Under the pieces are notes generated by a model that saw only the letters and a list, made by a program, of their open reading frames with translations, was not told where the DNA came from and did no database searches. Shown one piece after another: positions 1 to 33,462 of a stretch of DNA of 33,462 nucleotides. Source of the stretch: a virus (taxonomy: Duplodnaviria; Heunggongvirae; Uroviricota; Caudoviricetes); the IMG/VR virus record IMGVR_UViG_638341087_000016. One strand, 5' to 3'. Both the position numbers and the translations under genes were made by a program. Positions within the stretch are counted from its first letter, which is position 1; the number at the start of each line of letters is the position of its first letter.

Positions 1-966
1 ATGAAGCTATACATCATCGGGAATGGGTTTGATCTGCATCACGAACTTGACACGAGCTATTTCTCATTTGGGGATTATCTTCGGAAGAAAGACCAAGACA
101 TTTACGATCACTTGGTTGATTTTATGGGATTTACTGACTTACCCCCTAAACTTTCCGCAGTTGATAAGTCAAAACATTTTCTTTGGTCTGATTTCGAAAA
201 CAGCTTAGCGGGTCTGGATACAGAGTCAGTGCTCGAAGAGTTTTGCTATCTTTTACCCCAAATTAGCAGCCCTGATTTTCGTGACAAGGACTGGGGCTCA
301 TTAAGCATTGAAATGGAACGTATACTAAAAAATTTAACCGAAGGGCTTTTAACACAATTCAAGTCATTTATATTGCAGGTTAACTACCCCGAACTTAATT
401 TAAATAAAAGATTGCGTATCGATTCTGACTCTATCTTTATCAGTTTTAATTATACTGAGACTCTTCAGAAATACTATGGTATTGATGATAGACAAATTTT
501 ATATATCCATGGAAAAGCATCATCAGATCAACAGTTGATTTTAGGTCATGGTATTGACCCTATCAACTTTGAAGAAAAGGAAGCAGTCCCGCCCGAAAAT
601 GCAACCGATGAAGAACTTGAAGAGTGGCGTCAGTGTATGGCTGATAATTACGATCACTCTTATGAAATGGGAAAGCAGACTATTAATAAATACTTCACTT
701 GTTCTTTTAAGAATACTGAAAAAGTCATTGCTGACAGCGCTAAATTTTTTAAAAATCTCAGCAACGTAGACGAAATCATCATCATCGGCCATTCGTTATC
801 ATCTGTAGATGTTCCCTACTTTTCTTTTATACATAGCATTGTTAGTGAAAATACGGAATGGATAGCCACCTATTATCAGGAAACTGAGCGTGAAGCACAT
901 CATACAACATTATGTGAGATTGGCATTAAATCTCCCAAACTGATTTCAGTAAGTAAACTTCTATAA
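1..966 (+). CDS. AbiH-like abortive infection protein
   Basis: 321-aa ORF beginning MKLYIIGNGFDLHHEL, the N-terminal signature I associate with the AbiH family; AT-rich relative to the phage core. Confidence 0.55.
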   Translation: MKLYIIGNGFDLHHELDTSYFSFGDYLRKKDQDIYDHLVDFMGFTDLPPKLSAVDKSKHFLWSDFENSLAGLDTESVLEEFCYLLPQISSPDFRDKDWGSLSIEMERILKNLTEGLLTQFKSFILQVNYPELNLNKRLRIDSDSIFISFNYTETLQKYYGIDDRQILYIHGKASSDQQLILGHGIDPINFEEKEAVPPENATDEELEEWRQCMADNYDHSYEMGKQTINKYFTCSFKNTEKVIADSAKFFKNLSNVDEIIIIGHSLSSVDVPYFSFIHSIVSENTEWIATYYQETEREAHHTTLCEIGIKSPKLISVSKLL

Positions 967-1550: not shown

Positions 1551-3275
1551 TCAGGCTATCAGGGGGCCGTATTTGCTTTTCAATGTGCCGGTTTTATTGG
1601 CCGTTGCGGTGAACTGCGCCGCCTGCCCACTGGCCCCCGTATTGGGGTGAGTATGTGATGCGGCAGTCTCTGCCAGCTCCCTCACCACGTCCAGGGTGTC
1701 GGTGAGCAGTGTCAGGACGTTAATCTCTTCGCTTCCCAGCTTTACCACCGGGGCAATCAGTTGTTGCGCCTGGGCCACACTTCGGCGAATGCCGCTGATT
1801 TTTTCAGTCAGTGCGCCGCTGACGTTTGACGTGACATCCCCTTTCACGTCGTCTGTAACATTGCCCGCGACATCCCGTTTCACGTTCCGGCCAACACTGA
1901 CGGAATTGTCCTTGCTGCAGGTTACTGTCAGGTTGCCGGATGTGCCGACGCTGTAATCCCCCTCGCTGATATGAACGACCGCCCCGGCCAGAAGTGTGGC
2001 CGTGCCAAGCACGGTTGTTTTATCTGTTGCCTGGACCGTAGTTTCACGGGCAACCACTTTGCGGATCTCTTCGTCGGTGGTGACTTCGCGAGTCATGGAG
2101 TTTTCGCGGATTGTCTGATCCGTCTGGCGTTCCCAGTCTCCGGCAACCGTCACGCGCTGCGATACACCATCGCGCTGTTGCTGCAACTGCTCACCGGGTT
2201 TAACCGCTGGCAGGTTATGACCCTCCGCCATAATCTGACGCACAAAGGGCTTATCCTGCCGCCCCTCAGTGAACCCAACTTCAACCAGCGTGCCAGGGGG
2301 CGGAAACTGAAACATTCCTGACTCGCTGCCCGCCATTGGCACAGGTAGTGGAACGGCAGAATAGATCGGCGTATTTGCGGCTGGCTTGCCGTCTTCGTCA
2401 AGCAGCTGGAGATCCACGGCATAGCGTGGGCGGAATGGATCGGCAATATCCCCCCCTGAAACATCCTCGCTTGGCGCTTCCACCCTAGCGAATCTTGGAA
2501 GATGCAGGCCGCTTGCCAGCTCCGGGAATGCGTTTTCAATCTGCCGCTGAATGGGTGATTTTTGCAATGGCTGGCCGTTGGCTTTGTTGCGGGGCTGCCA
2601 GGTAATTGCCATGTCATCGTTATTTAGCCGGACCTGGTTCAGCCGCTGGCCGTTTACCTCCGCACCCGGGCGCAGGCTCTGAATCATTGGCACAACCATT
2701 GAATTTCCGCCTGCCGATTCCTGGCTAAATTCGTGCGGGATCTCCACTGGTTTTCCCGCAAAAAGACTATGCTCCGCAGCGCCGACGAAGACATCCCCGT
2801 CCGGCAACTGATACCAAAGATAATCCGTCACTGAAAATGCACGGCCCAGACTGGCAAAAAGCTGATAGCCCGTGCCGCTGTGCGTAAAGTGGGGGATCGG
2901 TTTATCTGCATAAGCAGCGCCGACCGGCGTTGTGACGGTCAGCCCGCTTTGCTCACTTATCCAGTCAGTAATCTGGCGCAACGTTGGATGCTGGAAAGAA
3001 CACGGCCACAATTTATCAAAGATGCCGACCAGCTCACGCACGAACAACCGGCATGTTCCATTATCAGCAGGCTGTGACCGTTCGACGTACCCGGTAAACC
3101 AGCGCAGGACCAGACCATCATAACCAACATCGATACGCACCATTTTGCCGGTGTAATCTGTCTCTGTCCCTGCCGTAATAAACCCCCGACCGCACGCGTT
3201 CAGCTCCAGCACGATATTGCAGTCAATCAGATGGACCGGATCAGAGGAAAGGTACAGGCGTTTAATTGGTTTCAT
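1551..3275 (-). CDS. D: Late control gene D-like baseplate hub protein with a C-terminal spike-like extension
   Basis: 574 aa; N-terminal region has the gpD-type VGYDG...FTGYVE pattern; C-terminal region has short repeats and an SHTHPNTG motif resembling spike apex HxH motifs; ATG start and TGA stop verified. Confidence 0.65.
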   Translation of the reverse strand: MKPIKRLYLSSDPVHLIDCNIVLELNACGRGFITAGTETDYTGKMVRIDVGYDGLVLRWFTGYVERSQPADNGTCRLFVRELVGIFDKLWPCSFQHPTLRQITDWISEQSGLTVTTPVGAAYADKPIPHFTHSGTGYQLFASLGRAFSVTDYLWYQLPDGDVFVGAAEHSLFAGKPVEIPHEFSQESAGGNSMVVPMIQSLRPGAEVNGQRLNQVRLNNDDMAITWQPRNKANGQPLQKSPIQRQIENAFPELASGLHLPRFARVEAPSEDVSGGDIADPFRPRYAVDLQLLDEDGKPAANTPIYSAVPLPVPMAGSESGMFQFPPPGTLVEVGFTEGRQDKPFVRQIMAEGHNLPAVKPGEQLQQQRDGVSQRVTVAGDWERQTDQTIRENSMTREVTTDEEIRKVVARETTVQATDKTTVLGTATLLAGAVVHISEGDYSVGTSGNLTVTCSKDNSVSVGRNVKRDVAGNVTDDVKGDVTSNVSGALTEKISGIRRSVAQAQQLIAPVVKLGSEEINVLTLLTDTLDVVRELAETAASHTHPNTGASGQAAQFTATANKTGTLKSKYGPLIA

Positions 3276-3282
3276 CGTTTAA

Positions 3283-3825
3283 TTACCCCAGCGCATCGTT
3301 GACCGGCTTTAAGACCTTTTCTTCAAACCAGCTCATTTTGTCGGCTGGCTCATCAGCTCCGGCAGCCGGACCCGCGCCCTTTGCCCCTGTTTGCTTGGTG
3401 CTGGCCGTCGCGTTGCCTTTTCGGGCCTGTCGTTTTTCCGGGACGCTGCCTTTTTCACGCAGGGTGAAACTTACCTGCCAGGCAAGGCGATCCTCCTGCG
3501 GTACGGCATCAATCTGACCGGTAAACGTGGCTTCACGAAGGTTGATAGCCGTCGCCGTCGCATTGGCGACGCGGTACTTTTTCAGTGCGCCGCTGGCTTC
3601 GGTCGCGGATGCCAGCTGGAAAAGCCGCTGTAAGACGGCTTCGTCGTCGAATGTCACCAGACCCGATACGCGCAGCTCTTTGGCCTTGATACCCTGTTCA
3701 GCATTGGCCGTGCTCGATGTCTGGCCCGACTGGTCCTTTTCCTGAAACTGCATGGAAGGTGAAACCAGCATGTTCTGCATGGCGATCCCTTCACCATCAA
3801 GCGCGAGTAATGCGGTCTGGCTCAT
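3283..3825 (-). CDS. Hypothetical phage tail/baseplate-associated protein
   Basis: 180-aa ORF in the tail operon, GC-rich like the phage core, Ala/Gly/Thr-rich; overlaps the upstream gene by 29 nt unless an internal Met is used. Confidence 0.4.
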   Translation of the reverse strand: MSQTALLALDGEGIAMQNMLVSPSMQFQEKDQSGQTSSTANAEQGIKAKELRVSGLVTFDDEAVLQRLFQLASATEASGALKKYRVANATATAINLREATFTGQIDAVPQEDRLAWQVSFTLREKGSVPEKRQARKGNATASTKQTGAKGAGPAAGADEPADKMSWFEEKVLKPVNDALG

Positions 3826-21028: not shown

Positions 21029-22086
21029 CAAAGAAACAGCGTAATAATAAAAAATTCAGGTCCATGACCGGCAGCAAGGTTGAATCCTTCACGCCAGGGC
21101 GCGGAAGCGTGATCACATTTGGCGAACCCGAACCCATCCTGACGACCGGCACTGATTATCACAATATCTGGTATGACAATGAGTATGACCACTGGCGACT
21201 CCCGATTGATCGCCTGGCGCTGGCCCAGTTGCCGAACCTTAACGGCCAGCACGGTGGGGTACTGTATGCGCGGCGCAATATGGTTGCCGGTGGCTACATC
21301 GGCGGCGGCCTGACGCCTGACCAGGTCGAACAGGCTGTCTTTGATTACCTGCTGTTTGGTGACGTCGCTATCCTGAAAATTCGTAACGTATTCGGGGAAG
21401 TGATCGACCTGCTGCCGCTGCCGTCGCTGTATCTGCGCTGCCGAAAAGACGGGGCGTTTGCTGTTTTGCAGGAAGGGCCAGCACTTATCTATGAACCGGA
21501 AGACATCGTCTTTTTTAAAATGTACGACCCGCGCCAGCAGGTGTACGGCCTGCCTGACTATATCGGCGGCATCCATTCGGTGTTACTCAACAGTGAGGCA
21601 ACCATCTTCCGACGCCGTTACTACAATAATGGGGCACATATGGGCTTTATTCTCTATACCAGCGATCCGAATCTTACGCTGGAAATGGAAAATGAAATCA
21701 AAGAGAAGATCGCCCAGTCCAAAGGGCTGGGTAACTTCCGAAATATGTTTATCAACATCCCGAAGGGCGACCCGGAAGGGGTTAAAATCATGCCAGTGGG
21801 TGAAGTCAGCGCAAAGGATGAATTTGCCAACATCAAAGGGATAACCGCGCAGGATATCTTTACCGCCCACCGTTTCCCCGCTGGCCTGGCGGGTATCATC
21901 CCGACCAACGGCGCGGTAATGGGCAACCCTGAAACCGCCCGCACAACCTATCGCAAGGATGAAGTTATCCCCTTGCAGCGCAAGCTAATGAACGGCGTCA
22001 ATAATGACCCGGAGATCCCCGCACACTTGCACCTGGTTTTTGACGTGGATATCCCGGCAATTGCCACCGAAAAGGGCGAAAAATGA
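21025..22086 (+). CDS. Q: Portal protein Q
   Basis: 353 aa, P2 gpQ-like, downstream of P with an ATGA overlap. Confidence 0.85.
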   Translation: MTKKQRNNKKFRSMTGSKVESFTPGRGSVITFGEPEPILTTGTDYHNIWYDNEYDHWRLPIDRLALAQLPNLNGQHGGVLYARRNMVAGGYIGGGLTPDQVEQAVFDYLLFGDVAILKIRNVFGEVIDLLPLPSLYLRCRKDGAFAVLQEGPALIYEPEDIVFFKMYDPRQQVYGLPDYIGGIHSVLLNSEATIFRRRYYNNGAHMGFILYTSDPNLTLEMENEIKEKIAQSKGLGNFRNMFINIPKGDPEGVKIMPVGEVSAKDEFANIKGITAQDIFTAHRFPAGLAGIIPTNGAVMGNPETARTTYRKDEVIPLQRKLMNGVNNDPEIPAHLHLVFDVDIPAIATEKGEK

Positions 22087-22409
22087 GCGCAGTTAAGTTA
22101 AAATCCCCCCCATTATTAGCAATGGCGTGCGGGATGGTGAACATGCGAGTTTTTAAAATTAAATGTCCTGAATGCGGCTCACCGGCCATCATTCGCAAAT
22201 CTGACTGGAAAGATAAAAAACTGGCGTCTTTATACTGTGGCTGCACAGAAGTGGAATGTGGTCATACATTTGTTTATAGCGTTGAGTTTTCACATACCCT
22301 CAGCCCCAGCGGGCTGACCGGCAACAAGCTGGTTAAATTCCTGATTGACCGGCTCAAGCCGGAAGAACGTCAATTCGCGCTGGACCTGCTCAGTGGGCAA
22401 ACTACATAA
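22083..22409 (+). CDS. ogr: Ogr/Delta-family zinc-finger late transcription activator (candidate)
   Basis: KCPECG...YCGCTEVECGHTF Cys motif resembling P2 Ogr; start overlaps the Q stop in ATGA; the short form would start at ATG 22143. Confidence 0.6.
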   Translation: MSAVKLKSPPLLAMACGMVNMRVFKIKCPECGSPAIIRKSDWKDKKLASLYCGCTEVECGHTFVYSVEFSHTLSPSGLTGNKLVKFLIDRLKPEERQFALDLLSGQTT

Positions 22410-22671: not shown

Positions 22672-25464
22672 TTAATCTGAAAGTTCACCAATATCATCCA
22701 TTGGTTTTTTATCATTAAAAGATAGACGAAGTTTTTGTTCATGTAATGCAGTGATTTTTTTACAACTATCTACAGAAATATAATAAAACGACAAGCCATC
22801 GTTATTAATAAATTCCAAATTAATCCTAATAGACATCAGCGCGTACATCAATGGATTTTCATCCTTGAAATTATACAACCCCTTAACTAAGGAAATATTC
22901 TCATCAGAAATACTTTCAATTTTCAAATCAAATAAATTAGTATTCCGCAGACAGGAAAATACGCTCAAAAAATCCATGTAGTAAAGACCAGGAGACCCCA
23001 AACCCAAAACTCCTTTTGAATCTGTTATTCTCATACCTTTTGAGTAACGGTAAACACTTGCCTCTCCTTTAACCATGTAATGAATTGTTATAAGCTTATC
23101 GGAAGGTAGTTCACTTACATCTTCGATCTCATTTACATCTTTATATTGGCCTTTAATTCCATCAAGCATTTTATGAAGCCAAGCATAGACAAACACTTCA
23201 GCATGATGTGAACTATTCATTGAATAATGCACTTTATCAATTGACTGCAAGACTTCTCTCTTATTAATCAATGAATAGAATGGATTGCAGACAACTGAAT
23301 TTGACACAGGAATAGAATCAATATCTACGAATTTATTAAAATACCCACCTAATGATATTGATACTTTATCTATGTATTTATTAACCAGAACCTTATCAAG
23401 GTCAGAAGAAACAATAGAATTTGCGATTAATTCATTTTTTACAGAAATTATACTTTCAAGATGCTCTGCAACCTCCATCCGATTTGTTTCTTGAGAAGAT
23501 CCTTCATTAATCAACTCTAATAAAGCTGAAAATTCATCACCTTTCAAATATGATATAAGTGATTGCAGTTCATGAGTTGTTATTTTTGTATTTTTAATAA
23601 ACTCTTTTTTATTACGTATAAAAATAGGATTGAGGTTGTTTTTATTAAATAATGTTTGAGTCATTAAAAGGGATACTGCTTTGAAAGCATCGTTATTTAT
23701 TGAAAAGGTTGCAACCTCATAATCAGGTATATCTCTTAAAGTTCTACTTGCATCAAAATCAGGTTCAGATGGGACTGTAAATATAACATCATACACGCCA
23801 CTCTTATAAAAAAGATCTTCTAGGAATGAAGGTGCTAACCATTTCATTAAATTCTGTTTTATTATTCTCAATTCCTCCTGATGCCCATCACTTTTTTCAG
23901 ATAAATAGCACAGCCTAATAATCAGTAAAGTTATAACCTGTCTTACACACGATACCATCTTGTTCTCAATGATACTAAGGGTTTCGCCATCATCAGATGA
24001 CTCTGGATAACGAAATTTCTCAGTCAAGAATCGAGTATTCAGGCTAAATGCCAAATAATTCTTTGACAAGATGTTGTCTCTCACCGTTGACATATATAAA
24101 TCAAAAAAACGATATTCTGGATCACCTAAACTATATTGAGCACGATGTTCCAATGACGGTGATATCAATTTATAAAATTCATCATATTGCTCATTATCAT
24201 AAATATACCTTCCCAAATCCATAATCGATCGAAGAGCATCACACACTATATTATAGTTTTTATACCCACTCACTTCAGAACTAACCTTCATATAAAAAGC
24301 AGCAAAAATTGAATACTCTATATTATTTTTTTTGTTAGTATAACCAAAAGAGTGATTGAGGTTATGTATTACTTTAACTAATTCAGTTTCACTAACTAAT
24401 GTGAAGATAGCTCTTATGCTAAAATCTAACGCTAACTCATTACCACTAAAAAGACTATTTCTTAAGCTAATAACTACTGCATCTTCATACTTACCGTAAT
24501 TCAAGAAGCTTTCAGGAGCTGAACTGAACACCAATCCTTTTTTCAATAGTTTTGTAACATTACTAATTAATAGCTCATCGATCGACGCTCCATCTTGCAC
24601 TTCAATATGAACCGATGAGGTTGATAGTGGATATATAAAGTTAAGATTCACGCGTAAATCAGTACGTACCACTTTCGAAAAACGCTCTAGCTCATTGTTA
24701 ATTTCTTTAAAGCAAATTGGACAAAAATCATTAATAATGACATTTTGATTATTTTGGAAAATATTTAACTTACGTTGTTCTTTATTGATAAAATCGGAAT
24801 CCCACCCATAATGAATATATTCAAAATCATTAATCATGTTTAAAAATTTATTTTCTATAGTTCTTCTACGTTCGTCAATCAATAAATAATCATTTTTAGC
24901 CTTATCAAGCTCAAAAAATAAACGATCAGTTATTATAGTTGGATTCTCAGTAACATTATATAATTTCAGATACATTGAACCATAATTAAAAATAAAGTAT
25001 AACGATACAAAAATGGATATAGCATAAGTAATCATGCCGCCACCACATGAAAGCAATACGATACCACTTAAAAGACTAAAAATAGAATTTAAACTAAACT
25101 TTAAAAAACTAGTTTTCCGCAACAACATCGACTTACAAATATTTTCAAAGCCATGTTCAGAATAATTAGAAACCTGACTAACAAACATTCCCATAAATGT
25201 AATTGATAGTGCAGCAATAGTTCCATGTATGCCTAAAACTCCCGCCCAAACACTAGTAGTCCAATTCAATGGGGAATTATTGAGAAAAGATGGTGTTACA
25301 AGTAAATACTTTACCCCTTCATCAACATATCTAGAGTAGATTACACCGGAAATACCCAACCCGACCAGAATAAAGTAGATCAAGAAGATAATTATAACTT
25401 CCCTATTTATACTTAAAAAACCATTATTAAAAATAATTTTTCTTTCCAAAATCAGACCCCACAT
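22672..25464 (-). CDS. Large membrane-anchored protein of unknown function; candidate single-gene anti-phage cargo
   Basis: 930-aa ORF with ATG start; about four N-terminal hydrophobic helices in residues 20-160 and a roughly 770-aa soluble region; very AT-rich coding sequence; no Walker A or other motif recognised by eye. Confidence 0.8.
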   Translation of the reverse strand: MWGLILERKIIFNNGFLSINREVIIIFLIYFILVGLGISGVIYSRYVDEGVKYLLVTPSFLNNSPLNWTTSVWAGVLGIHGTIAALSITFMGMFVSQVSNYSEHGFENICKSMLLRKTSFLKFSLNSIFSLLSGIVLLSCGGGMITYAISIFVSLYFIFNYGSMYLKLYNVTENPTIITDRLFFELDKAKNDYLLIDERRRTIENKFLNMINDFEYIHYGWDSDFINKEQRKLNIFQNNQNVIINDFCPICFKEINNELERFSKVVRTDLRVNLNFIYPLSTSSVHIEVQDGASIDELLISNVTKLLKKGLVFSSAPESFLNYGKYEDAVVISLRNSLFSGNELALDFSIRAIFTLVSETELVKVIHNLNHSFGYTNKKNNIEYSIFAAFYMKVSSEVSGYKNYNIVCDALRSIMDLGRYIYDNEQYDEFYKLISPSLEHRAQYSLGDPEYRFFDLYMSTVRDNILSKNYLAFSLNTRFLTEKFRYPESSDDGETLSIIENKMVSCVRQVITLLIIRLCYLSEKSDGHQEELRIIKQNLMKWLAPSFLEDLFYKSGVYDVIFTVPSEPDFDASRTLRDIPDYEVATFSINNDAFKAVSLLMTQTLFNKNNLNPIFIRNKKEFIKNTKITTHELQSLISYLKGDEFSALLELINEGSSQETNRMEVAEHLESIISVKNELIANSIVSSDLDKVLVNKYIDKVSISLGGYFNKFVDIDSIPVSNSVVCNPFYSLINKREVLQSIDKVHYSMNSSHHAEVFVYAWLHKMLDGIKGQYKDVNEIEDVSELPSDKLITIHYMVKGEASVYRYSKGMRITDSKGVLGLGSPGLYYMDFLSVFSCLRNTNLFDLKIESISDENISLVKGLYNFKDENPLMYALMSIRINLEFINNDGLSFYYISVDSCKKITALHEQKLRLSFNDKKPMDDIGELSD

Positions 25465-31017: not shown

Positions 31018-31293
31018 TTATGATGGATTGCCCAGACCCAACCACATTAACCACCCTTCCCTAATTTCCTTGGGACGACTCTCATACGCCATTTTCATTC
31101 CGTTGTTCCAGGCTGGGAGGTAGACCCAGTACTCACCTGCCCGCCCTGAAGTTGATTGCGGATCAGTCATCTCAACTACGGGTAGCTTTCCTTTTTCAAT
31201 CATTCCCCTTACTGCTGCCGGTGTTTTGCCGATCAGTTTTGCAAACTCCTGGTACGGGACAGCATCACTAATACTGACAACTTGTTTGCTCAT
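31018..31293 (-). CDS. cox: Cox (excisionase / early repressor of Pc)
   Basis: 91 aa closely matching P2 Cox (MSKQV...PYQEFAKLIGK...GRAGEYWVYLPAWNNG...WLMWLGLG); GAGG upstream. Confidence 0.9.
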   Translation of the reverse strand: MSKQVVSISDAVPYQEFAKLIGKTPAAVRGMIEKGKLPVVEMTDPQSTSGRAGEYWVYLPAWNNGMKMAYESRPKEIREGWLMWLGLGNPS

Positions 31294-31861: not shown

Positions 31862-32875
31862 ATGACAATTAAGAAACTCGATGATGGTCGTTATGAAGTG
31901 GACATCAGACCTGCAGGGCGCAACGGAAAGCGCATCCGCAGGAAATTTGACAAGAAAAGTGAGGCTGTAGCTTTTGAGAAACACACTCAATACAACCATC
32001 ACGATAAAGAATGGTTGGCTAAACCGACAGATAAGCGGCATCTGTCTGAATTAACGAAAGTCTGGTGGGATCTGAAAGGCAAGCATGAAGAACACGGAAA
32101 ATCTAATTTGGGTAAGATTGAAATCTTTACCCGGATCACTGATGACCCTTGCGCGTTCCAGATAACCAAAGCGCTTATTAGCCAGTACAGCATGACTCGC
32201 AGAGGGCAAGGCATAAAACCGACCAGTATTAACCGCGATCTTACCTGCCTGAGTGGTATGTTTACTGCGCTAATTGATGCGGAATTGTTCTTTGGTGAAC
32301 ATCCTTTCAGAGGGATGAAAAAGCTCAAGGAGCAGAAACCAGAAACCGGCTATCTGACGCAGGAAGAAATAACATTGTTGCTTGCCAATCTTGACGGGGA
32401 CAACAAGAAAATCGCGATTCTCTGTTTAAGTACCGGCGCTCGATGGGGTGAGGCCGCGAAACTGAAAGCTGAGAACGTAATACAGAATCGGGTGACGTTC
32501 GTTAAAACAAAGACGAACAAACCGCGTACTGTCCCTATCTCTGAGGAAGTGGCTGTAATGATTGCGGGTAAAGGTTATCTGTTCCCTGATGCCTCATACC
32601 CGAAGTTCAGGCGAACAATGAAAGATGTAAAACCAGATCTACCGGACGGGCAAGCAACTCACGCATTGCGTCACAGTTTTGCTACCCACTTTATGATTAA
32701 CGGCGGGAGTATCATCACCTTGCAGAGAATACTGGGACATTCACGGATAGAGCAGACAATGGTTTATGCGCACTTTGCCCCGGAGTATCTTCAGGATGCT
32801 GTTTCACTCAATCCGCTACGTGGTGGTGTTGACTCCCAGAGTGTCCACACTGTGTCCACACTGTGTCCACAGTAG
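31862..32875 (+). CDS. int: Tyrosine integrase (P2 Int-like)
   Basis: 337 aa with near-identity to P2 Int over long stretches (KKLDDGRYEVDIRP.GRNGKRIRRKFDKKSEAVAFEK; HALRHSFATHFMINGGSIITLQRILGH.RIEQTMVYAHFAPEYLQDA). Confidence 0.95.
   Translation: MTIKKLDDGRYEVDIRPAGRNGKRIRRKFDKKSEAVAFEKHTQYNHHDKEWLAKPTDKRHLSELTKVWWDLKGKHEEHGKSNLGKIEIFTRITDDPCAFQITKALISQYSMTRRGQGIKPTSINRDLTCLSGMFTALIDAELFFGEHPFRGMKKLKEQKPETGYLTQEEITLLLANLDGDNKKIAILCLSTGARWGEAAKLKAENVIQNRVTFVKTKTNKPRTVPISEEVAVMIAGKGYLFPDASYPKFRRTMKDVKPDLPDGQATHALRHSFATHFMINGGSIITLQRILGHSRIEQTMVYAHFAPEYLQDAVSLNPLRGGVDSQSVHTVSTLCPQ
32841..32872 (+). repeat. 11-bp tandem direct repeat (gtgtccacact, about 2.9 copies) at the 3-prime end of int
   Basis: gtgtccacact gtgtccacact gtgtccacag, immediately before the int stop codon. 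Confidence 0.8.
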
Positions 32876-32964
32876 GGTAGTTTATTATGGCTTTCAGTGG
32901 TCTTGCGTGCCGCACAAACCCGCATTGCACCGCTGAAAGCCCATGTTACCTACCCTGAAAAACG

Positions 32965-32986
32965 CCCTTACACGGGCTTATTTTTT
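32965..32986 (+). other. Prophage attachment-site core (P2 locI / cyaR 3-prime terminator type)
   Basis: CCCTTACACGGGCTTATTTTTT matches the 3-prime end of the P2 att core / cyaR terminator as I recall it; lies about 90 bp downstream of int. Confidence 0.65.
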
Positions 32987-33144
32987 ATGCATAAGCCCTA
33001 TCCCTGGTCACCGTCTTCCATTGACCACATCGATAGAATCTCCCTTCATAGCACGATGCCTTTCACGTAACGGCATCGTGCTCGCACAGGTTCCGGCTAA
33101 GCACAACCAGAACGCGCATGTTTGACGCTTACCAAAAAATATTC

Positions 33145-33462
33145 TCACTCTCCACATTTGAATGTCAGACGAGCGACGCCATGTAATCCTGCACCTTCTG
33201 TCTTCAGGTCAACTATCTGCATTTTTTTGCCCTGAGTAACACAGAAATGGGCTGCATCATTTTTTACTATATTTTCTGCACCAGATATTCTGCCCCTGGC
33301 TAAAGAAGCTTCGGCTTCGGTGTAGTATTGGTTATCGAGTTTACGCTGAATATTACTTTTATATGCAAGACCAAATTTACCGATACTTGTCTCATCATTA
33401 TGCACAGCACAACCAGACATAATAAAAATACTAATTAATGATATAGCAGCTATCTTTTTCAT
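33145..33462 (-). CDS. yegR: Host lipoprotein of unknown function (probably yegR)
   Basis: 105 aa with a signal peptide and MSGC lipobox; outside the att core; size and locus context fit E. coli yegR next to the P2 locI site. Confidence 0.5.
   Translation of the reverse strand: MKKIAAISLISIFIMSGCAVHNDETSIGKFGLAYKSNIQRKLDNQYYTEAEASLARGRISGAENIVKNDAAHFCVTQGKKMQIVDLKTEGAGLHGVARLTFKCGE

Follow-up and report, generated by a model that had tools for sequence, protein, structure and literature searches.

The right-hand end of the window, by which we mean the whole stretch of viral DNA that was analyzed (33,462 nucleotides, IMG/VR record IMGVR_UViG_638341087_000016), raises the question of where the phage stops and the bacterial chromosome begins, and whether the chromosomal side still carries traces of earlier integrations. 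Both ends of the window coincide with start codons, that of an AbiH gene at position 1 and that of yegR, on the minus strand, at position 33462, and a preliminary description made from its letters had proposed a P2 locI-type att core at a prophage-host junction, together with a possible scar of an older integration. We conclude, with a probability of roughly 0.93, that a P2-family prophage integrated in the 3' end of cyaR, at locI, meets the chromosome here, and that the junction is its int-proximal one, attR. Lying between yegQ/trhP and yegR, this cyaR 3' end is the classical P2 site of that name. The right boundary of the prophage is at position 32986, and cyaR is left undisrupted. The first features needed for this argument are the following.

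32960 to 32986, plus strand: att core region of attR, delimited by a four-way alignment of attB, attL, attR, and P2 attP.
32987 to 33144, no strand assigned: chromosomal cyaR-yegR spacer (the B' side of attB), 100% colinear with prophage-free E. coli E2865.
33145 to 33462, minus strand: yegR, the flanking host gene, encoding a 105-aa predicted lipoprotein (RefSeq; homologs in Pfam PF27694 YegR).

In the P2 genome (GenBank AF063097), the attP core is annotated as a 27-nt sequence, AATCTCCCTTACACGGGCTTATTTTTT, and Int arm sites, a Cox region, and an IHF site lie to its sides. The 22-mer CCCTTACACGGGCTTATTTTTT at 32965-32986, which is the exact 22-bp duplicated core, was identical to positions 6-27 of this P2 sequence (22 of 22 contiguous bases) and also to the 3' end of cyaR, matching the 3' half of its terminator exactly, as the preliminary description had proposed. 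Over the full P2 core, 25 of 27 positions agreed, the leftmost five letters being AAACG in place of AATCT. The 22-mer was unique in the window even with up to three mismatches allowed (expected matches, 0). Its target could be seen in prophage-free E. coli E2865, in which the genes follow the order yegQ-cyaR-yegR, cyaR is recognized by Rfam RF00112 with 100.7 bits, the 27-nt core consists of the terminator loop, the 3' stem, and the T-run of that gene, and ATGCATAAGCCCTATCC comes directly after the core, as it does in the window from 32987. Moreover, a synthetic empty site composed of cyaR and the window flank was retrieved as one 321-nt piece with 100% identity from many complete genomes. The alignments with the prophage-free yegQ-cyaR-yegR region (flank 100% colinear) and with P2 attP (core 25/27), the P2-type int 90 bp upstream, and the empty site in prophage-free strains all upheld the proposed locI-type core at a prophage-host junction. 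The window itself holds just the 3' half of the cyaR terminator stem and the T-run, and an Rfam search of the whole window returned no family at the gathering score, so no full CyaR/RyeE (RF00112) is present. That ryeE/cyaR is a phage target has been published (PMC3603311), and the biology of an att-core junction at cyaR is already known. In a side observation, the attB core of E. coli S10EC (locus L138, 2980-2990) was found to read ACACAGGC versus ACACGGGC, one mismatch to the P2 core, which gives the cyaR terminator stem a Watson-Crick pair where it otherwise has G-U.

The phage side of the junction is made up of three further elements.

31862 to 32875, plus strand: int, P2-type tyrosine integrase of 337 aa (tblastn, Pfam).
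32841 to 32873, plus strand: P' arm with three tandem 11-nt repeats, GTGTCCACA(C/G)T, overlapping the 3' end of int (repeat search).
32874 to 32956, no strand assigned: spacer separating the P' arm from the core and containing a 28-nt imperfect inverted repeat.

The integrase shared 86.3% amino acid identity with P2 Int over 99% of its length (tblastn) and contained the Int_N and Phage_integrase domains (Pfam); its gene is transcribed toward the core, with 90 bp separating the int stop codon from the 22-mer. The P' arm consists of two copies of GTGTCCACACT and one of GTGTCCACAGT, which are putative Int arm-type sites, and the equivalent position in P2, with two repeats, is annotated as the "Int P' arm". 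The consensus reported for P2-type arm sites, tgTGGaCa (PMC3448106), is the reverse complement of TGTCCACA. Two repeats were also present in near-identical prophages, including those of strains 2011C-4251 and 129, and the best complete-genome matches listed for the junction were 11 bp shorter at the P' arm, consistent with two copies. The third repeat (+11 bp) alters the C terminus of Int (ending in STLCPQ vs. STVG) and brings in a further turn of the helix together with an additional Int arm site. The imperfect 28-nt inverted repeat between the int stop codon and the core (GGCTTTCAGTGGT ... ACCGCTGAAAGCC) is also conserved in P2, the annotation of which assigns Cox binding to the region (24399-24472); by its position, the spacer at 32874-32956 would be the equivalent of that region. 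In the int transcript, the repeat might in addition fold into a 3' structure.

No second copy of the core was found in the window, again with up to three mismatches allowed, since the left junction lies outside it, and about 165 bp of prophage precede the first letter of the window. The structure of attL was, therefore, deduced from near-identical prophages of other genomes, cyaR and the second core being absent from the window. The prophage of E. coli O103:H2 strain 129, which is 99.9% identical to the window over all 33,462 bp, was found to carry exactly two copies of the 22-mer (locus L004, 10118 and 43252), 33.1 kb apart; the second core that the preliminary description expected at the other prophage end was thus missing from the window and found in this strain. 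There, the left copy completes an intact cyaR of 100.7 bits, equal to that of the empty site, and is followed by phage DNA (GCGTGTAATCTACTGAAATAAATGGATTTATTT...GTCCACACATTGACCACATC), in which an IHF-like site and two arm repeats GTCCACACATTGACCACATC make up a typical P arm of the P2 type, all of it outside the window. The 22-bp identity block is common to phage and host, and it was left at both ends of the strain 129 prophage. Since attL retains the host letters AATCT and attR retains the phage letters AAACG, the strands were exchanged within the 22-bp block, rightward of core position 5; the likeliest place is around TTACAC, which is flanked by the dyad-symmetric half-sites AAAAACGCCC and GGGCTTATTT. 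The cyaR gene is intact at attL because the 3' half of its terminator is replaced there by a phage-borne copy, as seen in strain 129.

By analogy with P2, Int would act as a heterobivalent tyrosine recombinase that binds the TGTCCACA arm repeats at 32841-32873, the P-arm repeats at the other end, and the core, thereby bridging the arm repeats to the inverted core half-sites, while IHF would bend the P arm. Integration was a recombination of attP (...AAACG-CCCTTACACGGGCTTATTTTTT-GCGTGTAATC...) with attB (...AATCT-CCCTTACACGGGCTTATTTTTT-ATGCATAAGC...), and excision would presumably require Cox, Int, and IHF, with Cox setting the direction, as in P2. This scheme predicts that the left end in the source genome reads cyaR, the 22-bp core, and then GCGTGTAATCTACTG, and that the circle junction attP formed after excision reads ...CTGAAAAACGCCCTTACACGGGCTTATTTTTTGCGTGTAATC.... 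We also observed that the phage DNA following the core at attL of strain 129 (L004, 10140-10152) reads GCGTGTAATCTAC and is like the 5' half-stem and loop start of the cyaR terminator (GCCTGTGTAATCTCC); therefore, in attP, TTACACG is followed by a T-run and then by the inverted repeat CGTGTAA. Citrobacter-type phages have a matching variant, GCCTGCAATC, with the host core ACGCAGGC.

The remainder of the window showed what kind of prophage this is, and four of its genes are relevant.

1 to 966, plus strand: AbiH abortive-infection gene (Pfam, 2.4e-60; PADLOC AbiH).
22083 to 22409, plus strand: Ogr/Delta-like zinc-finger gene, adjoining the portal gene.
22672 to 25464, minus strand: hypothetical 930-aa ORF between the ogr-like gene and the replication gene.
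31018 to 31293, no strand assigned: cox homolog, from the RefSeq annotation of near-identical prophages.

Apart from strain 129, 18 further complete genomes matched the first 3.3 kb of the window with at least 99% identity, and in the RefSeq annotation of near-identical prophages the cox and C genes adjoin int. The AbiH gene lies beside the P arm, in the att-proximal slot held by ogr in P2, and the tail module (DUF2586, DUF2590, and a tape measure protein) is unlike that of P2. Because the tail module and the position of ogr differ from P2, this is a P2-family phage and not P2 itself, and because the tail module is non-P2-like, the prophage is a mosaic in which the integration, immunity, replication, and head modules are of P2 type. 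The 930-aa ORF occupies roughly the slot where P2 carries its old/tin defense cargo. A PADLOC search gave no match for this ORF, nor for three other ORFs of the prophage.

Turning to the chromosomal side, of 5426 complete E. coli genomes, 5372 had the 158-nt cyaR-yegR spacer, with 90-100% identity, and only about 808 had an integrase adjoining the yegR flank. Everything to the right of 32986 is chromosomal DNA identical to that of prophage-free strains, including the following elements, which the preliminary description had in part ascribed to the junction.

32974 to 32981 and 32991 to 32998, no strand assigned: 8-bp perfect inverted repeat, GGGCTTAT/ATAAGCCC, spanning the core-host boundary, of which the right-hand partner is chromosomal.
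33004 to 33033, plus strand: P2-type P-arm relic, CTGGTCACCGTCTTCCATTGACCACATCGA versus CTGGTCACGTCCACACATTGACCACATCGA of P2 (annotated Int arm sites).
33037 to 33046, plus strand: decamer AATCTCCCTT, a polymorphic chromosomal sequence.
33050 to 33060 and 33072 to 33082, no strand assigned: 11-bp perfect inverted repeat, AGCACGATGCC / GGCATCGTGCT, with an 11-nt loop.

The relic at 33004-33033 lies 34-47 bp from the core and retains one arm-type site, GACCACA, intact. Its local alignment with the P2 P arm scored 38, compared with 14.7 ± 2.3 for shuffled sequences (0 of 3000 as high), and none of 4000 natural enterobacterial windows reached its score under any of three scoring schemes. When aligned with the P arms of 11 P2-like elements, it showed a 16-nt loss in the region of the IHF site and a mutated first repeat. 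The same similarity might be explained the other way round, that is, by P2 having captured host DNA through imprecise excision, and one feature fits with this, since the sub-motif CTGGTCAC is common to the E. coli flank, P2, and the K-12 remnant only, among the P arms compared. We consider such a capture very improbable, though, because the arm-site block GTCCACACATTGACCACATCGA is kept in P2-like prophages of Citrobacter, Buttiauxella, Trabulsiella, and Enterobacter, the chromosomes of which are without the flank, and because the block is a repeated functional element that is also found in the P' arm. Moreover, the mutated first repeat of the E. coli copy and its 16-nt gap over the IHF-site region form a pattern of decay, not that of a source sequence.

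A gene-order scan with a cyaR pattern, one genome per species, returned 120 Enterobacteriaceae loci. In most of them yegS started no more than about 110 nt past the end of cyaR (yegS was found there in about 65), and in Escherichia sp. E1V33, the sole non-coli Escherichia with an empty site that was sampled, yegS came directly after cyaR; among the loci scanned, yegR was present in E. coli only. The E. coli-specific segment is about 800 bp long, has a GC content of 40% versus 50-54% in its flanks, and starts exactly where the core ends. At its right end, homology to the cyaR-yegS spacer of E1V33 resumes at TTTTTATCCTCCGACTTTCATCC. In register with this point, upstream of yegS and beyond the right end of the window, we found a degenerate second core, AATCCTCCATACTTGAACTGACTTTTT, which agrees with the P2 core at 18 of 27 positions, and the 57 nt that end at its right T-run are colinear with the P'-proximal sequence and core of P2. 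As compared with null windows, this right-hand relic was equaled or exceeded by 0 of 4000 in two scoring schemes and by 81 of 4000 in a stringent one. A BLAST comparison of the 0.8-kb spacer with P2 and the window prophage detected the core and the P arm only, and no protein-level remnants; the right-hand relic was missed because it offers no 7-mer seed.

The segment thus combines the marks of a decayed prophage, namely a lineage-specific insertion, att-derived bounds, of which the right one is tentative, and residual phage homology. It seems probable that the cyaR-yegR spacer and yegR are together a species-wide fossil of a much older P2-type prophage. The order of the fossil would be cyaR core, decayed P arm, hairpin, yegR, decayed P'-proximal sequence, degenerate core, and yegS, and its left core would have survived because it is the cyaR terminator. 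Somewhat less firmly, though still on the favorable side of even, we suggest that "empty" locI (the cyaR-yegS spacer with yegR, the decamer, and the hairpin) is a fixed fossil that hosts modern P2-family integration and excision beside a partial P arm.

A phage origin of yegR itself can be put forward tentatively. A tblastn search of phage genomes with YegR returned just two records labeled as phage, and no free-phage homolog. The first, "Phage TP" (GenBank AY639599, with Ogr and a putative protease), was ruled out as a yegR-bearing phage, since it is 99.9% identical to the K-12 chromosome; it is the P2 remnant of K-12, comprising the yegQ 3' end, cyaR, PR-X, and yegR, and its "protease" is yegQ/trhP. 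The second, Escherichia phage vB_EcoM-720R8 (GenBank ON470606), carries the YegR gene at 32335-32649, just past the integrase; since this is the arrangement of the window junction, the record probably includes host flank. Two distant YegR homologs (P0069 and P0076) were considered as P2 cargo and rejected, as their contexts, an IS-rich island and a mug-proximal site, are not P2-like. Two structural variants of the flank were also observed: E. coli S10EC has a 174-bp AT-rich insert (3155-3328) between the spacer and the yegR stop codon, and strain PU-1 departs from the spacer at the point of this insert. In E. albertii NBRC 107761 (locus L074), a P2-type P arm follows cyaR and is broken inside the first arm repeat (...TTTCTGATCGCGTCCAC|TGTAAGT...), and none of ogr, int, yegR, and yegS lies within 3 kb. 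It represents a further P2-type remnant at the cyaR site, independent of the others.

The preliminary description had placed a possible scar of an older integration elsewhere, at the decamer AATCTCCCTT, the idea being that an earlier P2-type integration or excision had left a second att core there, of which the decamer would be the left half. The resemblance that it noted is real: the decamer is identical to core positions 1-10 (10/10), that is, to the cyaR terminator loop, and by a rough estimate the probability that any 10-mer of the 27-nt core occurs in the 160-nt flank is about 0.005. The spacer also holds P2 arm homology, so the neighborhood is phage derived, and independent P2-type remnants occupy the site in K-12 (PR-X) and in E. 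albertii. Nevertheless, the decamer is found in prophage-free strains, its exact 40-nt context being present in 2618 of 5426 complete E. coli genomes (48%), while the K-12 variant AATCCTCCTT takes its place in 1940 of the 5426 (36%). The remainder of the core is absent, as the downstream sequence CATAGCACG departs from it; the decamer is on the far side of the P-arm relic, a place that holds a core in no canonical att layout; and the degenerate core upstream of yegS (18/27, in register with the insertion boundary) is a better candidate. Furthermore, a single 10-mer match is within chance over the whole window, in which the decamer occurs once and in shuffled versions of which at least one copy was seen in 6 of 100 cases. 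E. coli ECMA0423 was tried as an outgroup to polarize the decamer and dropped because its differences were homopolymer-indel-like in a low-accuracy assembly. Since the preliminary description had itself named ordinary occurrence in prophage-free strains as the observation that would speak against a scar, we regard the decamer as polymorphic chromosomal sequence and a core-derived origin as unlikely. The broader idea of an older integration scar probably holds, with the P-arm relic and the degenerate core upstream of yegS in the place of the decamer. Nor did the suggested likeness to the K-12 remnant stand, as PR-X is built differently, from ogrK and a D fragment, a truncated core TACACGGGCTTATTTTTTT, and then host flank.

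Two hairpins had also been proposed at the junction. For the one formed by the core with downstream sequence, the 8-bp repeat is perfect and is present in empty attB sites too, but its fold was no better than chance (z = -1.6; 14 of 200 shuffles as good). The perfect 11-bp inverted repeat at 33050-33082 was present as described, and its fold was far more stable than that of shuffled sequences (-24.6 kcal/mol, z = -4.8 on the minus strand; z = -5.3 on the plus strand). It is located 62 nt downstream of the yegR stop codon on the minus strand, and we find it most likely that it is a 3' stem-loop of the convergent yegR transcript. A scan of 32700-33462 on both strands gave no terminator-like sites, and, read in the direction of transcription, both hairpins lack the subsequent T-run of a Rho-independent terminator. 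Across eight E. coli lineages, the stem of the 11-bp hairpin was largely kept and its loop was variable, and the two stem changes seen were non-compensatory.

A more elaborate proposal would be that the decamer and the 11-bp hairpin together form a functional RNA element of the yegR 3' region, in which the hairpin stabilizes or ends the yegR transcript and the decamer, read on the minus strand as AAGGGAGAUU, is complementary to the CyaR terminator loop and is also like a Shine-Dalgarno sequence 9 nt upstream of the AUG opening a 10-codon ORF. The stability of the hairpin (z about -5), a distance of 62 nt from the yegR stop codon that suits a 3'-end structure, the conserved stem with its variable loop among the eight lineages, and the purine-rich character of both decamer variants on the minus strand would all fit. 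On the other hand, there is no U-tract and no terminator-like site in the scan, the stem changes do not compensate each other, no Rfam family matches, and the mini-ORF is merely the reverse complement of the arm-site relic. We hold such an element to be slightly less likely even than a scar at the decamer, and retain the reading of the decamer as polymorphic host sequence.

The main finding is primarily of annotation value, as it fixes where, at a textbook attachment site, a P2-family prophage ends on the right. If the fossil reading is true, the consequences are wider: the reference "empty" attB of P2 would be an old att junction of the P2 type that retains an Int arm site, which could contribute to locI being a preferred site of P2, and yegR, a species-wide gene of unknown function, would be cargo left by an ancient phage. 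The locus would then exemplify the repeated use and decay of one att site in an sRNA terminator, in layers that comprise the species-wide fossil, PR-X of K-12, the E. albertii remnant, and the current prophages, which occupy the site in at least 15% of complete E. coli genomes.

The closest known system is P2 attP at locI, with which the window phage shares the target (the cyaR 3' end between yegQ and yegR), the succession of TGTCCACA repeats overlapping the int 3' end, spacer, and core, and the placement of cox and C beside int. Unlike in P2, the core of the window agrees with the P2 sequence at 25 instead of 27 of 27 positions, and AAACG in place of AATCT brings the left half-site closer to symmetry with the right one than it is in P2; there are three P' arm repeats rather than two, the P arm lies beside an AbiH gene rather than ogr, and the tail module is non-P2-like. 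The cryptic K-12 prophage PR-X (ogrK, yegZ) occupies the same locus, has the same right host flank bar a few substitutions, with AATCCTCCTT at the position of the decamer, and likewise ends at core-derived sequence abutting ATGCATAAGCCC. PR-X is, however, a 629-bp ogr-proximal remnant composed of the cyaR core, the P arm, ogrK, and a D fragment, the right end of which is the truncated core TACACGGGCTTATTTTTTT made by deletion and followed by host flank, whereas in the window the prophage is of full length, its 22-bp core is complete, and its int end takes up that position. More generally, temperate phages insert in the 3' ends of tRNA and sRNA genes, as exemplified by phage 186, HP1, and the Salmonella phages at ryeB/sdsR. 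The window phage differs from such integrators in that its target is the stem of an sRNA Rho-independent terminator, and not a tRNA T-arm or acceptor stem, and in that its identity block is short (22 bp), but it resembles them in that the phage-borne gene end restores the gene at attL and the displaced 3' half is found at attR.
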